This document shows, one piece after another, positions 39,201-45,200 of a DNA stretch of 64,000 nt. The stretch comes from Escherichia coli (GTDB taxonomy: Bacteria; Pseudomonadota; Gammaproteobacteria; Enterobacterales; Enterobacteriaceae). The DNA is taken from NCBI RefSeq assembly GCF_036507355.1, contig NZ_AP027877.1, one strand, 5' to 3'. A program made the position numbers. How positions within the stretch are numbered: position 1 is the stretch's first letter; every line of letters begins with the position of its first letter.

Positions 39201-42200
39201 TGCCGATGGGAACATTCATGTCTATGGCATGATGCGCGGTCGTGCGCTTGCAGGGGCAAGTGGTGACCGGGAAACGCAAATATTTTGTACGAACCTGATG
39301 GCGGAATTGGTGTCCATCGCAGGTGAATACTGGCTGAGTGATCAAATCCCAGCAGAATTTTATGGCAAAGCGGCGCGACTGCAGTTAGTCGAAAACGCTT
39401 TGACCGTTCAACCGTTAAATTGATCCCTTTTTAACAAGGAATTTCTATGGCACGCATTATTGTTGTTACTTCGGGCAAAGGGGGTGTTGGTAAGACAACC
39501 TCCAGCGCGGCCATCGCCACTGGTTTGGCCCAGAAGGGAAAGAAAACTGTCGTGATAGATTTTGATATCGGCCTGCGTAATCTCGACCTGATTATGGGTT
39601 GCGAACGCCGGGTCGTTTACGATTTCGTCAACGTCATTCAGGGCGATGCAACGCTAAATCAGGCGTTAATTAAAGATAAGCGTACTGAAAATCTCTATAT
39701 TCTGCCGGCATCGCAAACACGCGATAAAGATGCCCTCACCCGTGAAGGGGTCGCTAAAGTTCTTGATGATCTGAAAGCGATGGATTTTGAATTTATCGTT
39801 TGTGACTCCCCGGCAGGGATTGAAACCGGTGCGTTAATGGCACTCTATTTTGCAGACGAAGCCATTATTACCACCAACCCGGAAGTCTCCTCAGTACGCG
39901 ACTCTGACCGTATTTTAGGCATTCTGGCGTCAAAATCACGCCGCGCAGAAAATGGCGAAGAGCCTATTAAAGAGCACCTGCTGTTAACGCGCTATAACCC
40001 AGGCCGCGTAAGCAGAGGTGACATGCTGAGCATGGAAGATGTGCTGGAGATCCTGCGCATCAAACTCGTCGGCGTGATCCCAGAGGATCAATCAGTATTG
40101 CGCGCCTCTAACCAGGGTGAACCGGTCATTCTCGACATTAACGCCGATGCGGGTAAAGCCTACGCAGATACCGTAGAACGTCTGTTGGGAGAAGAACGTC
40201 CTTTCCGCTTCATTGAAGAAGAGAAGAAAGGCTTCCTCAAACGCTTGTTCGGAGGATAAGTTATGGCATTACTCGATTTCTTTCTCTCGCGGAAGAAAAA
40301 CACAGCCAACATTGCAAAAGAACGGCTGCAGATTATTGTTGCTGAACGTCGTCGCAGCGATGCAGAACCGCATTATCTGCCGCAGTTGCGTAAAGATATT
40401 CTTGAGGTCATTTGTAAATACGTACAAATTGATCCTGAGATGGTAACCGTACAGCTTGAGCAAAAAGATGGCGATATTTCTATTCTTGAGCTGAACGTGA
40501 CCTTACCGGAAGCAGAAGAGCTGAAATAAGCCCGCTGTAAAAGCGCATTTATCTTCAAGGCAGAGTTATCTCTGCCTTGAGTTTTTCATCCCTCTCATCC
40601 ACTTTGTGGTAAAGCGGCGAGTATTCTTGCTGATACTCCTCATTGCTATTTCCACCTCCCCCTTTACACCTTAAGGCTGTTCCCACGCACAAAACAAAAT
40701 GTTTATGCCTGGTTGAGTAAATAACCTTATTGTTAGTATGGATATACTGGGAGATGATAACCCCGCAATTTCATTATTCATTGTTCTCCCATAGGATGAG
40801 GTTTCCCGCCGTAACTGGCGGGCTTTTTTTACCCCAGAATTTTCTCTTTTAACCTCCTGTAAACGAAAACTGTGCCGAAGTGCAGTTTAATCGTTGATGG
40901 TCAGAACGACCAGTTCACACCAGCCACCGCGTTCCACGGGGATTCCACACCGGCACCGTTGCTATACCCCACCCCGAGATGCCCGCTTAACGTACTGCTG
41001 AATGAGGCTTTAATACCTGCCTGGTATATTCCACGTCTGCCCGACAAATCATTGACGAAATTACCGTCATTATTCACCTTCACCCGGTTATCATCGACAA
41101 ATTCTTTGCGCACAGCCGCCTTCAGCCACGGCTCAATTTCCATACCGTTTCCCAGACGCATGTTGTAACTCAGCGTTGCGCCCAGTTCACGATATATACT
41201 GCGGGTATCGACTGATTTCGATTTCATGCCATTGGATAAATGATATTCGGGGTTATCAGCGGTGAACCCCGTTAACGATGCATACGGCGTCAGGTTCCAG
41301 TTACCATCGGTAAATCGCATCCCGGTTTCAATGTGACCGCCCAGCCCGTTGCTGTGGTAACTGCCATTGGCGGCTCCACCGCTGCTCATTTTACCGGCTA
41401 CGTTACTTTCAAAACGGTTCAGCTTCACGACACCGTCCAGATAGAAACCACTTTCATGTTCCCAACTGACATAGCCGCCCAGAGAATAACTGCCCACACT
41501 GCCATGTCCTCCACGATCAAAACCGATATGTGAATGGGAATAACCCATAAAAGCGCCCAGCGTCGCAATCCCCTCAGGAACATCATTACGGCTGTCGATC
41601 CCCCCTGTCATTCCGGTCAGCGTCTGCTCAAACCCGGCACCCGCATCAGTGGTGACATTATTACGGGTGTTATACGTCGCCCCCCAGACATTATTGTTGT
41701 GTGGACTCGCTTTCATTATGTTCAATCGCTCGCGAATACTGTTTAGCTCAGCATCAAATACCAACGGTAATGTTGCTGCCATATTGAGTACGGCTGCGGT
41801 AGAAGGCGTGATGCGTTTCTCCGGAACGGGTGTCGGCGTTGGATCGGGAGTCGGGTCTGGGTTCGGATTTGGGTTCGGATTTGGGTTTGGGTTTGGGTTT
41901 GGGTTTGGGTTTGGGTTGACATTATTGGTCAGGTTCCAGTTGCTGTTGCCGTCACTTTTCAGGACATACTCATAGGTCCCAAGATCAACGAAACCGCCGG
42001 TATTGCCCAGCGTAAACGAAGCATCCCCTCCCCCTGTTTTCACCAGCGTCATCGCGTCGTCAGACTGTGGGCTGACGCCGGTATCCTGAACAAAGATTTT
42101 AAAATTACCAGTGGCGTTGTTGTTGACGACCAGTTGATCGCCCCGGGAGCCTGCAACGTTGGTATGCAGGTAGAAGTTACCGCTGCCGGAAAGTTCATTG

Positions 42201-45200
42201 GTTGTCAGCGTATTGTAGATACCGTTAGTTGTGGCAGGCGCTGATAAATAAACATCACCGTCGTTGAGTAGCAAACTGTTTACGCTATATTCGCAGTTGC
42301 TGAAACCTGCACAGGAATTATTGCTGTTAAGCCAGACATTGCCCCGGCTGGCAGCCGTCAGGTCGGCAAGCGTCGTATCAACGCCATTGCCGATAGTAAA
42401 TGTCGCGCTATCGGTAATCCGGATCGCCCCTTCGAGTTTAACTGGCGTAACATTATCCCGTGGCGTCATTAACGACAGGCTTCCTGTCGCGCCACTGACC
42501 GATGCATCCGCCAGCGTACCTGCGTAGACGATTGCTGTCCCGCCAGCAACCTGGAGATCTTCTGCACGGGCCAGAGCCTGAAACTCATCTTTTGACCGCC
42601 CAAGGGTATATTGCCCGCCAGAGTTAACCTTTGTGGCGGAGTCCTGACCCAGGTTTTGCATTGCACCACCCTTGCCAACCGTGGAGTCACGGGCTTCGGT
42701 ACCTGCTAATACCAATAAATTACCGCCATTTTCCAGCAACACATTGGTCGATAAATTGCCGGCAATGGAAAAGGTACCGTACTGGTGAGTACCGCTGATT
42801 TCAATACCGTTAGCCGTGCTCGTCTGGAGAGCGGCACCGCTGCTTTGTACGATATCTGTCGCTTTGCCATTATCGTTGACTGTCAGCGTACCGCCTTCAT
42901 TGATCGTTGTTTTTATTGCCTCTCCGTTAGCTGAAACTGTTTGTATTCCGCCGTCGTTAATTGTTGTCTCATTCGCCACACCCTCGACAATTTGTTCACC
43001 ACCGGTGAGCGTCGTGCTTGTCGCAGTGGCTTTTGTTTTGACGATCTCCCGTCCGCCCGTATTGACCTGTGTTTTGTCAGAAGAGGTGTCTGACTCCACG
43101 GTTAACACGCCGCCATTTGCCAGCAGGATATTGTTCGCCGCACCCTGCTCGATGCTGAACGCGACGCCATCCGCGCGTGTTCCTGTGACCCGCGTCGCCC
43201 TGGTGGTTGCAACCAAAGCGCCCTGGCTACTCTGCTGTATCCCCGTTGCGCTGCCTTTCTCCCGCACATCGAGTGTGCCGCCATTGTTAAGTCTGGTGGT
43301 ATATGCTACGGCTTCCTCGTGGACAATCAGCTTACCGCCAGCATCAACGATGGTATCTACCGCCGAGGTTTGAGCTACGACCGTCAGTTCGCCGGTATTT
43401 TCCAGCACAACATGCTCAGCCCTGCCTCCGGTAATAGTGAAGTGAGATGACCTCTGGTATCCGTCAATATCAGTCCCCGCGCCCGTGTTGGCAACTAAAG
43501 CGCTCCCCGTGTCCAGGTAAACCCCATGTGCGATACCGCCGGTATGGACAATCAGAGTGCCTCCGGCACGAATATTGCTGCCAGTTGCCGTACCTCCTTT
43601 CTCAACAACCTGCTTGCTCCCGGAAGAGATATTTGTTGTGTCAGCTTTCCCGCCACTCTTGATATTTTGCGTGCCACTGTTGATATTGGTTCCCGTAGCA
43701 ATACCATGATTATAAATATTCTGTGTACCGCCATTAATGATGGTATTTGTCGCGTTTCCGGCAACATCCATAACCCCGCCATTATCTATTCGGGTCGCAT
43801 CAGCTTTAGCATTCGTTAAAACTGACATTGTTCCTTTATCGTTAATTATCGTTCCTGTAGAAATCCCTCCCTCACTAATTGTCTGGCTGCCACCGTTAAT
43901 GACTGTATTATTAGCCTGCCCCTGATAAGAGCCATGTCCAGACACCTCTTGATGTCCACCAGTATCAATAAGACTTCCATTAGACACCCCGCCATATACC
44001 TCCTGATTGCCATGATTGATGATATGAGCATTATTTGTTGTACCTCGTTCATCTACTCTTTGGCTGCCGTCTACAGTCTCATCATTTACAACGCCAATAA
44101 CATTAGAAGTGAAAGCCGTCATCCCGGGAGGGGCATATATCATGGCAGATATCAATAAGGAAAGTACTGAGCGGTGAAAATAATAGCGACTGGTTCTGTT
44201 CATAAATTTCATCCTCTGAAAAATGAATACTGAGTAGCGTCTAAGTGACCTAAGCTCTGCTGGGTGATGCTGCCAACTTACTGATTTAGTGTATGATGGT
44301 GTTTTTGAGGTGCTCCAGTGGCTTCTGTTTCTATCAGCTGTCCCTCCTGTTCAGCTACTGACGGGGTGGTGCGTAACGGCAAAAGCACCGCCGGACATCA
44401 GCGCTATCTCTGCTCTCACTGTCGTAAAACATGGCAACTGCAGTTCACTTACACCGCTTCTCAACCCGGTACGCACCAGAAAATCATTGATATGGCCATG
44501 AATGGCGTTGGATGCCGGGCAACAGCCCGCATTATGGGCGTTGGCCTCAACACGATTTTACGTCACTTAAAAAACTCAGGCCGCAGTCGGTAACCTCGCG
44601 CATACAGCCGGGCAGTGACGTCATCGTCTGCGCGGAAATGGACGAACAGTGGGGCTATGTCGGGGCTAAATCGCGCCAGCGCTGGCTGTTTTACGCGTAT
44701 GACAGGCTCCGGAAGACGGTTGTTGCGCACGTATTCGGTGAACGCACGATGGCGACGCTGGGGCGTCTTATGAGCCTGCTGTCACCCTTTGACGTGGTGA
44801 TATGGATGACGGATGGCTGGCCGCTGTATGAATCCCGCCTGAAGGGAAAGCTGCACGTAATCAGCAAGCGATATACGCAGCGAATTGAGCGGCATAACCT
44901 GAATCTGAGGCAGCACCTGGCACGGCTGGGACGGAAGTCGCTGTCGTTCTCAAAATCGGTGGAGCTGCATGACAAAGTCATCGGGCATTATCTGAACATA
45001 AAACACTATCAATAAGTTGGAGTCATTACCGCTCTGCTGCAACATCAGCCCGCAGGCACCAGACCAGGGGATTCCTCCTGAAGAGACAGCGCAGGTGTAT
45101 TGTGTTCACCGCTCACCAAAGACATCATGATGAAATGATGATATTCCGCATAAGAAAGAGGCATTTTTTAAACGCAGTGCGCTGAAGTGTAGTTGGATAA

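Follow-up and report, generated by a model that had tools for sequence, protein, structure and literature searches.

The closest described relatives of the gene considered here are YpjA of Escherichia coli K-12 (b2647) and its EHEC homologue EhaD, AIDA-I-type autotransporter adhesins that have been tied to adhesion and biofilm formation. According to a 2022 review, YpjA may be a SAAT, with a mechanism that is unknown (PMC9289746). TibA, a self-associating autotransporter of ETEC, has a proline-rich domain between its junction and its membrane domain (PMC3835316). Elsewhere, the number of in-frame repeats modulates adhesion in Haemophilus Cha and stress tolerance in E. coli TolA (PMC3477136), and periscope proteins are described as carrying length-variable stalks of highly identical, independently folding domains (Whelan, Potts et al.; PMC9704523). 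In TolA, Cha, and regions 1 and 2 of pertactin, in-frame copy number varies by strain and alters the length of a spacer or extended region, as it does in the locus described below; for those proteins, effects on function or immunity have been measured. The repeat unit of the present gene is unusually short (6 nt, or 2 aa).

The gene was examined in a 64,000-nucleotide stretch of an E. coli genome (contig NZ_AP027877.1), hereafter the window, in which the longest ORF occupies positions 40901..44212 on the minus strand and comprises 1103 codons plus a stop, with no internal stop codon. A GAGG ribosome-binding site abuts the first ATG and sits 9 nt before a second ATG (44203), which is also where PGAP starts the orthologues; the second ATG is therefore probably the true start and the product more likely 1100 aa in length. 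The 1103-aa autotransporter proposed in the first-pass annotation is uninterrupted, and its length holds for the open frame rather than for the likely product. The gene lies between minE and ymgJ, and its orthologues likewise adjoin minE. In W3110 and a BL21 derivative, this interval retains only a 344-nt remnant, annotated as 'autotransporter beta-barrel, frameshifted, missing N-terminus', and the K-12 remnant aligns with the final 345 nt of that gene at 96.5%, in agreement with the earlier statement that K-12 has only a pseudogene here. Flanked in the same way, by minE at one end and by ymgJ with a 39-codon ORF at the other, and matched at its 3' end by the remnant, the window gene is, by these comparisons, the K-12 ycgI remnant in undeleted form. 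K-12 ycgI has lost about 3 kb, beginning roughly 25 nt before the ATG and reaching into the barrel, whereas the window copy is full length. An estimated 7–10% of complete E. coli genomes carry the gene; this figure, which falls short of a complete tally, was derived from rank positions in a spread listing of matches and from the surplus of matching places. About 90% of E. coli genomes have lost the gene by deletion or hold it in degraded form.

The encoded protein has the complete signal region, passenger, and beta-barrel that had been ascribed to it, as judged from Pfam and TIGRFAM matches, an AlphaFold2 (AF2) model, and direct reading of the sequence (all features of the gene given here lie on the minus strand). 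The N-terminal signal region (~aa 1-33; 44114..44212), recognized by reading and modeled with pLDDT <50 at residues 1-32, combines a basic n-region (K2, R6, R9, H13, R14) with a hydrophobic core, SVLSLLISAMIYAPPGMTA, of ~19 residues and is predicted to be a Sec signal peptide. The passenger (aa 36-762; 41927..44107) contains six stretches of AIDA repeats (PF16168, E 8e-85) and eight stretches that match TIGR04415, a heptosyltransferase-target model, and it ends in a pertactin-like junction or autochaperone domain (PF03212, aa 644-762; 41927..42283). The AF2 model of the passenger is all-beta, and its ~19-residue AIDA-type repeats, modeled as a beta-helix, place the protein in the AIDA-I/Ag43/TibA group; the structures of Ag43 and TibA are the best matches both by sequence and by fold. 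An alpha-helical segment (aa 803-835; 41708..41806), modeled as helices 803-812 and 814-835 that directly precede the first barrel strand at residue 840, matches the EspP, NalP, and AIDA-I translocators and, by likeness to such solved autotransporters, is predicted to be the helix that plugs the barrel. The C-terminal beta-barrel translocator (aa 840-1103; 40904..41695) carries the autotransporter beta-domain (PF03797, aa 842-1081, E 4.6e-45), falls within a TIGR01414 match that spans aa 666-1103 (E 4e-97), and has sequence matches in Vag8 and BrkA. Its model resembles the BrkA, EspP, NalP, and AIDA-I translocators, with a TM-score of up to 0.85 (BrkA beta-domain, normalized to the target), and the protein ends in NWSF. 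The predicted 12-stranded barrel with its terminal aromatic residue and the modeled pre-barrel helix are those of a classical (type Va) autotransporter, and on sequence and model the product is a classical AIDA-I/Ag43-like autotransporter adhesin. As inferred from this family, the protein would be exported by Sec, after which the C-terminal barrel would insert in the outer membrane with the helix at aa 803-835 filling its pore and the beta-helical passenger displayed outside.

The gene that most resembles this one is ypjA. Protein identity to K-12 YpjA is ~92% over aligned columns, nucleotide identity is 93–96% over most of the gene, the domain order is alike, and the two genes have in common ~340 nt of upstream leader, including the 39-codon ORF, 64 nt before the start. 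PGAP names the orthologues of the window gene as YpjA/EhaD. Orthology with YpjA/EhaD was nonetheless rejected, since the gene adjoins minE and not the ssrA-smpB / CP4-57 region in which ypjA lies, and since its 1103 aa are not collinear over the full length of the 1526-aa YpjA. The passenger is ~420 aa shorter than that of YpjA, with two blocks of ~0.6 kb missing (~1.2 kb of the ypjA passenger is unmatched), and the linker is almost purely (NP)n, whereas that of YpjA, which has X-Pro dipeptides at the equivalent position and is also variable in length (15–22 units), mixes KP, DP, and NP. Given the other locus, the shorter passenger, and the distinct linker, the gene is, on sequence grounds, a paralogue of YpjA/EhaD and not an orthologue. 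Many genomes hold both genes, the matching places exceeding the matching records by 417. The first-pass annotation had overlooked that the gene belongs to this recognized YpjA/EhaD type. Over its 3' 2.4 kb, the window gene shares 96% identity with K-12 ypjA, as compared to 96–98% with true orthologues, and this similarity suggests past exchange between the paralogues.

The likeness to TibA is more distant. The order of passenger, junction, proline-rich segment, and membrane domain is the same, and TibA-like relatives align over the whole window protein at ~33–35% identity with repeat spacers at the equivalent position. These spacers consist of (NPDAG/NPGTG)n pentapeptides, whereas the window gene has an NP dipeptide microsatellite. 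TibA further has a dedicated heptosyltransferase, TibC, whereas no glycosyltransferase gene, a cognate heptosyltransferase (Aah/TibC) included, was found beside the gene in its annotated orthologous loci, where the neighbors are only ymgJ, ymgI, ymgG, ymgD, and minCDE. Glycosylation in trans is possible, and the passenger repeats match TIGR04415.

The X-Pro linker (aa 766-797; 41822..41917) comprises 16 hexanucleotide units that encode the 32 residues (NP)10 DP TP DP TP TP VP, or 10 Asn-Pro and 6 other X-Pro dipeptides, and the surrounding residues 764-800 are modeled with pLDDT <50 and no secondary structure. Six perfect units had been proposed for this passenger-barrel linker, and they are present as (AACCCA)6 on the coding strand (41917..41882), the most slippage-prone part of the tract; the units that follow are AATCCG AACCCA AATCCG AACCCA GACCCG ACTCCC GATCCA ACGCCG ACACCC GTTCCG. 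With TRF, the array was detected as a period-6 repeat at 41853..41917 (10.8 copies, score 95), and the perfect hexamer-periodic run, with partial flanking units, measures 39 nt, for which the chance of occurrence in 64 kb (~4^-33 per position, by the authors' own arithmetic) is negligible. The tract is predicted to form an extended or unstructured spacer, encoded by (AAYCCR)n, between the last passenger rung and the plug helix. Because the unit is 6 nt, slipped-strand mispairing would add or remove Asn-Pro dipeptides without loss of frame, such that only the length of the stalk would change, by an estimated ~0.6 nm per unit if the stalk is extended.

Tract sequences were compared for nine alleles at the minE locus and four ypjA alleles. 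Same-locus E. coli orthologues have 3, 11, 20, 24, 27, 28, ~36, or 37 NP units, and copy number differs even between near-identical backgrounds; the tract is hypervariable, and its flanks are nearly invariant. In 117 of the 119 surveyed records the length offset from the window is a multiple of 6 nt (range -36 to +162 nt). Both remaining records carry a frameshift annotation, and the disruption in one of them, LHM10-1, falls at A/C homopolymer runs inside the tract. Among the 60 best matches there are 22 length classes, including the adjacent classes 573, 579, 585, 591, 597, 603, and 609. Over 5.6 kb, a single SNP and exactly one AATCCA unit distinguish strain 1190 from isolate 3702594. The prediction that units are gained and lost without a frameshift, which invariance of the repeat number among isolates would have contradicted, is clearly upheld by these lengths and by this one-unit step. 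A role as an on/off phase-variable contingency locus was rejected, the 6-nt unit being inside the ORF and the frame being kept in the same 117 records. The expanded unit variants differ by allele (AACCCA x10, AATCCA x6-7, AACCCG runs), and the alleles, to judge from these variants, expanded independently.

Slippage is well supported as the source of this variation by the patterns described above, from which it is inferred. A different main source would be exchange by homologous recombination or gene conversion, whether among alleles or involving ypjA, and the near-orthologue identity of the 3' 2.4 kb to ypjA is consistent with it, as are large jumps in length; two O55:H7 strains with 8 mismatches in 5.5 kb are 102 nt apart in the tract (3 versus 20 units). 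However, ypjA linkers are rich in KP and DP while the tract at the minE locus is NP-only, indicating that the tract is not being homogenized, the clean one-unit change in the longest perfect run of two otherwise identical 5.6-kb sequences is a signature of slippage, and many adjacent length classes are present, all of which make recombination an improbable main source. Some of the big gaps, including that in O55:H7, could individually be single recombinational deletions and not the outcome of stepwise slippage.

One proposal for such a range of lengths is adaptive tuning, in which the (NP)n stalk sets how far the beta-helix projects past the LPS O-antigen or capsule and is selected by lineage or niche. 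Capsule and LPS reportedly shield short adhesins such as Ag43. The very wide range (3–37 units) against conserved flanks points in this direction, as do the variable spacers of differing sequence, (KPDP)n, (NPDAG)n, and (GGENP)n, each of variable copy number, that relatives hold at the equivalent position; this suggests that a variable spacer is itself a conserved feature of the AIDA/TibA-like clade. The effects of repeat number in Cha and TolA (PMC3477136) and the established concept of length-variable surface-protein stalks (PMC9704523) lend it further weight. Yet the defining trait of periscope proteins is an array of folded domains and not a low-complexity dipeptide tract (PMC9704523), and the loss or decay of the gene in about nine of ten E. 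coli genomes argues for weak overall selection; adaptive tuning is accordingly regarded as rather unlikely. A broader and equally doubtful version would have the (NP)n tract and its (KPDP)n, (NPDAG)n, and (GGENP)n counterparts in related enterobacterial autotransporters serve as a selected, fast-evolving 'stalk-length dial' that matches the reach of short beta-helical adhesins to the thickness of the O-antigen or capsule of the strain. If true, this would make classical autotransporters counterparts of the periscope proteins in which a dipeptide repeat replaces folded domains; both bear an adhesive module on a length-variable stalk of a surface-anchored protein. Membership of the window gene in the periscope proteins was rejected, its stalk being a low-complexity dipeptide tract without predicted secondary structure.

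The first-pass annotation had also raised surface-antigen variation. The (GGXXP)n and (PQP)n regions of pertactin are polymorphic and immunogenic, and, as proposed for the repeats of Bordetella pertactin, an exposed NP tract could act as an epitope in which changes in copy number aid evasion of antibodies. The tract is extracellular by its predicted topology, polymorphic, and directly preceded by a pertactin-like domain. Against this, a change in the number of identical NP units adds no epitope of new sequence, the tract lies close to the membrane and is probably hidden beneath LPS, and YpjA-type autotransporters are reportedly expressed poorly in the laboratory. Such autotransporters came to be reported by means of engineered expression (Roux et al. 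2005, as cited in PMC3796261). Antigenic variation is thus considered very improbable, and the tract, located at the base of the passenger next to the membrane, is more naturally taken as a polymorphism in spacer length. The variation is judged to be mainly mutation-driven, with the exact length of the spacer weakly constrained. The locus joins the known adhesins whose spacers contain an in-frame repeat. How broadly the lengths are distributed cannot by itself separate neutrality from diversifying selection.

In the window genome, a 768-bp IS1 (44264..45031, plus strand), overlooked in the first-pass annotation, lies 51 nt before the first ATG, in the 5' leader of the gene, and its insA/insB are directed away from the autotransporter. 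A 9-bp target-site duplication, GCTCTGCTG, flanks the element at 44255..44263 and 45032..45040, as read from the sequence and from comparison with L003, positions 389-397 of which match both sides of the element. The displaced native upstream region, containing ymgJ and the 39-codon ORF (45041..45427, minus strand), is conserved upstream of this gene and of ypjA. The IS1-leader junction was absent from the E. coli complete genomes searched. In a consensus-match scan, promoter-like sites on the strand of the gene occurred only beyond IS1 (45371-45343 and 45245-45218), with none between IS1 and the ATG. With IS1 standing between the ORF and its conserved 5' leader, the copy in this genome may be silent, being poorly transcribed or not transcribed at all, and the earlier description of the gene as intact holds for the ORF and not necessarily for its expression. 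Other sources of transcription are possible, including a promoter in the remaining 51 nt, read-through, or a hybrid promoter at the IS1 end.

The opposite outcome, activation of the gene by IS1 through an outward or hybrid promoter or through disruption of a silencer in the leader, has some precedent: IS1 insertions can reportedly form functional promoters at their ends, and bgl is a case in which they can lift silencing. The gene-side end of IS1 holds TTGGCA, a match to 5/6 of the -35 consensus, and the ORF is still intact while neighboring genes have decayed. At a spacer of 16–18 nt, however, the flank provides only a poor -10 (TTAGGT or TAGGTC), the interval between IS1 and the ATG had no promoter-like site in the scan, and IS1 is classically polar in both orientations, leaving activation an improbable reading. 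An undeleted ycgI that is a paralogue of YpjA/EhaD, with a slippage-variable and weakly constrained spacer and with IS1 probably silencing the present copy, is the joint explanation that is considered likely. In this genome the gene would be an ORF that was orphaned recently and has stayed intact, set in a decaying background rich in IS elements; near it, umuC is split, hlyE is truncated, and ycgH is cut by an IS3-family element.

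The autotransporter gene (40901..44212, minus strand) lies 371 nt downstream of minE, with which it is convergent. Between minE and ymgJ, both K-12 W3110 and a BL21 derivative have just a 344-nt pseudogene annotated as 'autotransporter beta-barrel, frameshifted, missing N-terminus', which bears out the suggestion of the first-pass annotation that a full ORF is present here where K-12 retains only a pseudogene. This K-12 remnant, ycgI, aligns with 96.5% identity to the final 345 nt of the window gene, and alignment places the start of the K-12 deletion about 25 nt upstream of the ATG. 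The window gene is thus the undeleted form, or full-length ancestor, of K-12 ycgI. Full-length genes of 3279-3471 nt are found at the min locus in TB06052, E105, wlxctx60, XJ34, O55:H7 strains, VE-T9, strain 1190, and 06-00048. The 5' end of the gene is estimated, rather than counted, to be at the min locus in about 7-10% of 5,426 complete E. coli genomes; the range was worked out from where matches ranked in a spread listing and from how far matching places outnumber matching records. No match to the window gene better than 97.6% was found among the complete E. coli genomes. O157:H7 records retrieved in the complete-genome search carry a 754-nt 3' remnant at the min locus and their O55:H7 relatives retain the full gene; the gene appears to have been lost on the O55-to-O157 lineage.

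The reading frame is single and unbroken over 1103 codons, and the complete signal region, passenger, and beta-barrel initially ascribed to its product are correct according to domain searches, an AlphaFold2 model, and Foldseek. Pfam models identify six stretches of AIDA repeats (E 8e-85), a Pertactin domain (aa 644-762), and an Autotransporter beta-domain (aa 842-1081), while among NCBIfam models the TIGR01414 barrel spans aa 666-1103 and the Ag43, AIDA-I, and YfaL equivalogs show similarity only below threshold. The nearest solved proteins by sequence are Vag8, Ag43, TibA, BrkA, and pertactin. In the AlphaFold2 model, built from a 33-sequence alignment with a mean pLDDT of 74, a low-confidence N-terminus (aa 1-32) is followed by an all-beta passenger (aa 36-762), a segment without secondary structure and with pLDDT below 50 (aa 764-800), a helical segment (aa 803-835), and the barrel (aa 840-1102). 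The modelled passenger resembles those of Ag43 and TibA in Foldseek, and the barrel resembles those of BrkA (TM-score of 0.85 normalised to the target), EspP, AIDA-I, and NalP. Judged by sequence and by the modelled fold, the protein has the make-up expected of a classical AIDA-I/Ag43-type autotransporter. Its length of 1103 aa holds for the open frame. A GAGG ribosome-binding site, however, touches the first ATG (44212) and lies 9 nt ahead of a second ATG (44203), which is also the start that PGAP assigns to the orthologues, and the product is therefore more likely to be 1100 aa. Eight matches to TIGR04415, a repeat targeted by AIDA/TibA heptosyltransferases, fall at about aa 140-510 in the NCBIfam search of the frame (window 40904..44212); no glycosyltransferase gene is annotated adjoining the orthologous loci.

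PGAP names the min-locus orthologues 'ypjA: adhesin-like autotransporter YpjA/EhaD'. The true ypjA adjoins ssrA-smpB or CP4-57 genes, and many genomes have both loci. The window protein is about 92% identical over aligned columns to K-12 YpjA, and about 1.2 kb of ypjA passenger sequence is absent from the window gene. The similarity extends upstream, where the min-locus gene and ypjA share roughly 90% identity over about 340 nt (positions 1..447 of L003, a min-locus orthologue with an uninterrupted leader, versus 840..1187 of L010, the K-12 ypjA locus). This common stretch includes a ymgJ-like ORF and an ORF of 39 codons whose end is 64 nt ahead of the start, indicating that the duplication carried a long conserved leader with it; an Rfam scan of this 5' leader returned only a chance snoRNA match (E 0.67). 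Based on the protein identity, the missing 1.2 kb of passenger sequence, and the upstream similarity, the window gene is a paralogue, not an orthologue, of YpjA/EhaD and represents a second adhesin of this type. The 3' 2.4 kb (window 40891..43282 versus L010 3357..5778) is 96% identical to K-12 ypjA and about equally close to true min-locus orthologues (96-98%), while the 5' part is only 85-88% identical, a pattern that suggests past gene conversion between the window gene and ypjA. The linkers of true ypjA genes have 15, 17, 19, or 22 X-Pro units and are rich in KP and DP, clearly unlike the NP-only tract of the min locus. An ORF that was unlabelled thus gains a name and a history, as the ancestor of ycgI and a second YpjA/EhaD-type adhesin, and some caution is warranted with PGAP's 'ypjA' label, which spans two distinct loci. 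The YpjA/EhaD family has been tied experimentally to adhesion and biofilm formation, according to a statement in PMC3796261 that cites Roux et al. (2005), and the same link is made in PMC9289746 and PMC12547504.

The in-frame hexanucleotide linker with six perfect units that had been noticed by eye was confirmed and is far beyond chance expectation. Tandem Repeats Finder reports a period-6 array of 10.8 copies at 41853..41917, within which AACCCA is repeated six times with no mismatch on the coding strand (41917..41882). The units that follow on that strand are AATCCG, AACCCA, AATCCG, AACCCA, GACCCG, ACTCCC, GATCCA, ACGCCG, ACACCC, and GTTCCG, such that aa 766-797 read (NP)10-DP-TP-DP-TP-TP-VP. 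This linker coincides exactly with the stretch that the model leaves unstructured after the last passenger strand and before the plug helix.

In a word-indexed protein search, repeat words swamped the results and most of the matches were fragments; copy number was consequently analysed by DNA searches. A 501-nt segment centred on the tract was searched against complete E. coli genomes, taking the span of each match as its length. Of the 119 records listed, 117 are offset from the window by a whole number of 6-nt units, from -36 to +162 nt, and 22 length classes occurred among the 60 best matches. Counts of Asn-Pro units read from individually fetched min-locus orthologues are 3 in O55:H7 strain 2013C-4465, 11 in E105, 20 in O55:H7 DEC5B, 23 in 06-00048, 24 in strain 1190, 25 in isolate 3702594, 27 in wlxctx60, 28 in TB06052, about 36 in XJ34, and 37 in VE-T9; repeat number is therefore not invariant across genomes. 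The sequences flanking the tract (...NWNLTNNV and PEKRITPSTAAVL) are kept in all of these fetched orthologues. Over 5.6 kb, strain 1190 and isolate 3702594 differ by one mismatch and by one extra AATCCA in the longest perfect run, and the two O55:H7 strains (2013C-4465 and DEC5B) differ by 102 nt in the tract versus 8 mismatches in 5.5 kb. Judging from these pairs, change is much faster in the tract than in the sequence around it. The synonymous unit variants that have expanded differ by allele (AACCCA, AATCCA, AACCCG, or AATCCG/AACCCA pairs), which points to repeated, independent expansions. Given the 6-nt lattice and the one-unit step within 5.6 kb of near-identical sequence, the proposal that slippage changes linker length without shifting the frame stands.

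An origin of this variation in assembly artefacts is unlikely because the genomes are complete, the tracts are at most 260 nt, and lengths follow the 6-nt lattice; moreover, clonal sets have equal lengths (e.g., 465 in seven O55:H7 strains and 585 in twelve strains). The two records that depart from the lattice, LHM10-1 and HCP5S3_I2, are 'frameshifted' per PGAP. The disruption in LHM10-1 is at A/C homopolymer runs within the tract and could be either a real inactivating mutation or a long-read homopolymer sequencing error. On/off phase variation was rejected since the repeat unit is 6 nt long, and the repeat is an in-frame VNTR rather than a phase-variation switch. It is among the most length-variable short in-frame repeats documented here at a defined E. 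coli locus. With 3 to 37 units and single-unit steps among near-clonal isolates, it is potentially useful as a high-resolution typing marker. It does not correspond to a generic E. coli MLVA locus, in that no CVN001-CVN017 primer (sequences from PMC8143711) has a site in the window or in the fetched loci when as many as 3 mismatches are allowed, and a literature search of limited extent found no paper describing the variability of the tract.

By its topology, the tract lies right at the outside of the barrel mouth, with the pertactin-like junction domain on one side and the plug helix on the other. X-Pro repeats are usually extended, and an extended tract would span about 0.6 nm per unit by our estimate. 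In an alignment of related autotransporters (columns corresponding to window aa 763-800), other proline-containing repeats of variable copy number occupy the linker position: (KPDP/NPDP)n in YpjA and E. albertii, (NPDAG/NPGTG)n in TibA-like proteins, and (GGENP)n, at about 25 units, in an Enterobacter protein. TibA, too, has been described as carrying a proline-rich domain, located between its junction and its membrane domain (PMC3835316). Based on its position, on these repeats, and on the TibA domain, we read the tract, by analogy, as a probable spacer or stalk. Length-variable stalks are a recognised theme (PMC9704523), although the dipeptide tract of the window gene falls outside the definition of periscope proteins. 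For E. coli TolA and the Haemophilus autotransporter Cha, function is modulated by in-frame repeat number (PMC3477136). Adaptive tuning of tract length is nevertheless considered unlikely here. Our best guess is that the polymorphism is mutation-driven in a weakly constrained spacer, because most E. coli no longer have the gene and the lengths are spread broadly and smoothly. Antigenic variation through NP copy number is the least supported reading, given that further copies of an identical NP unit bring no new epitope and that the tract is membrane-proximal. The finding, while real and well characterised, belongs to a familiar category and does not overturn current understanding. The natural allele series is a convenient one in which to study a possible effect of stalk length on short autotransporter adhesins beneath LPS or capsule.

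An intact ORF should not be equated with an expressed gene in this genome, given an IS1 element in the leader. This complete 768-bp IS1 (44264..45031), with insA/insB directed away from the autotransporter, is bordered by a 9-bp direct target duplication, GCTCTGCTG (44255..44263 and 45032..45040). The insertion point is 51 nt ahead of the first ATG, in the 64 nt that separate the upstream 39-codon ORF from the start codon, and its junction, which reads GTGACCTAAGCTCTGCTG|GGTGATGCTGCCAAC, does not occur in any of the 5,426 complete E. coli genomes. The conserved leader has been displaced to 45041..45427. A promoter scan, which reports consensus matches only, placed sigma-70-like sites on the gene's strand at 45371-45343 and 45245-45218 (equivalent to L003 57-85 and 183-210) and none in the stretch from the IS1 to the ATG. 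Insertions of IS1 are classically polar whichever way the element is oriented. Since the element lies between the ATG and the only sigma-70-like sites, this copy has probably been separated from its promoter. Activation of the gene by IS1, for instance through a hybrid promoter formed at the end of the element, is a possibility with little support and of low probability: a -35-like hexamer (TTGGCA) does occur at that end, but no acceptable -10 follows it, and the scan yielded no site on the gene's strand. With its promoter probably cut off, the autotransporter may be a recently orphaned ORF in which lesions have not yet accumulated.

Elsewhere in the window, umuC is split into two overlapping ORFs (32340..33604; profile positions 1-176 and 176-422) and hlyE is truncated to positions 1-168 of 305 (34247..34897); both look like pseudogenes. 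Within 46327..51670, only the C-terminal 407 aa of ycgH remain, an IS3-family element (transposase 47664..48473) having cut the gene near 47642, and a second IS1 (49090..49856) is directly followed by icd (50423..51670). At the position flanking icd, K-12 carries about 25 kb of other genes (ymgF, pdeG, ariR, and others, plus e14), and here this interval seems to have been lost or rearranged. The flanks are about 98.3-98.7% identical to E. coli. Together with the two IS1 copies, the IS3-family element, the split umuC, and the truncated hlyE and ycgH, this level of identity suggests an E. coli lineage that is Shigella-like or otherwise IS-rich, and the neighbourhood shows IS-mediated decay of the Shigella type.
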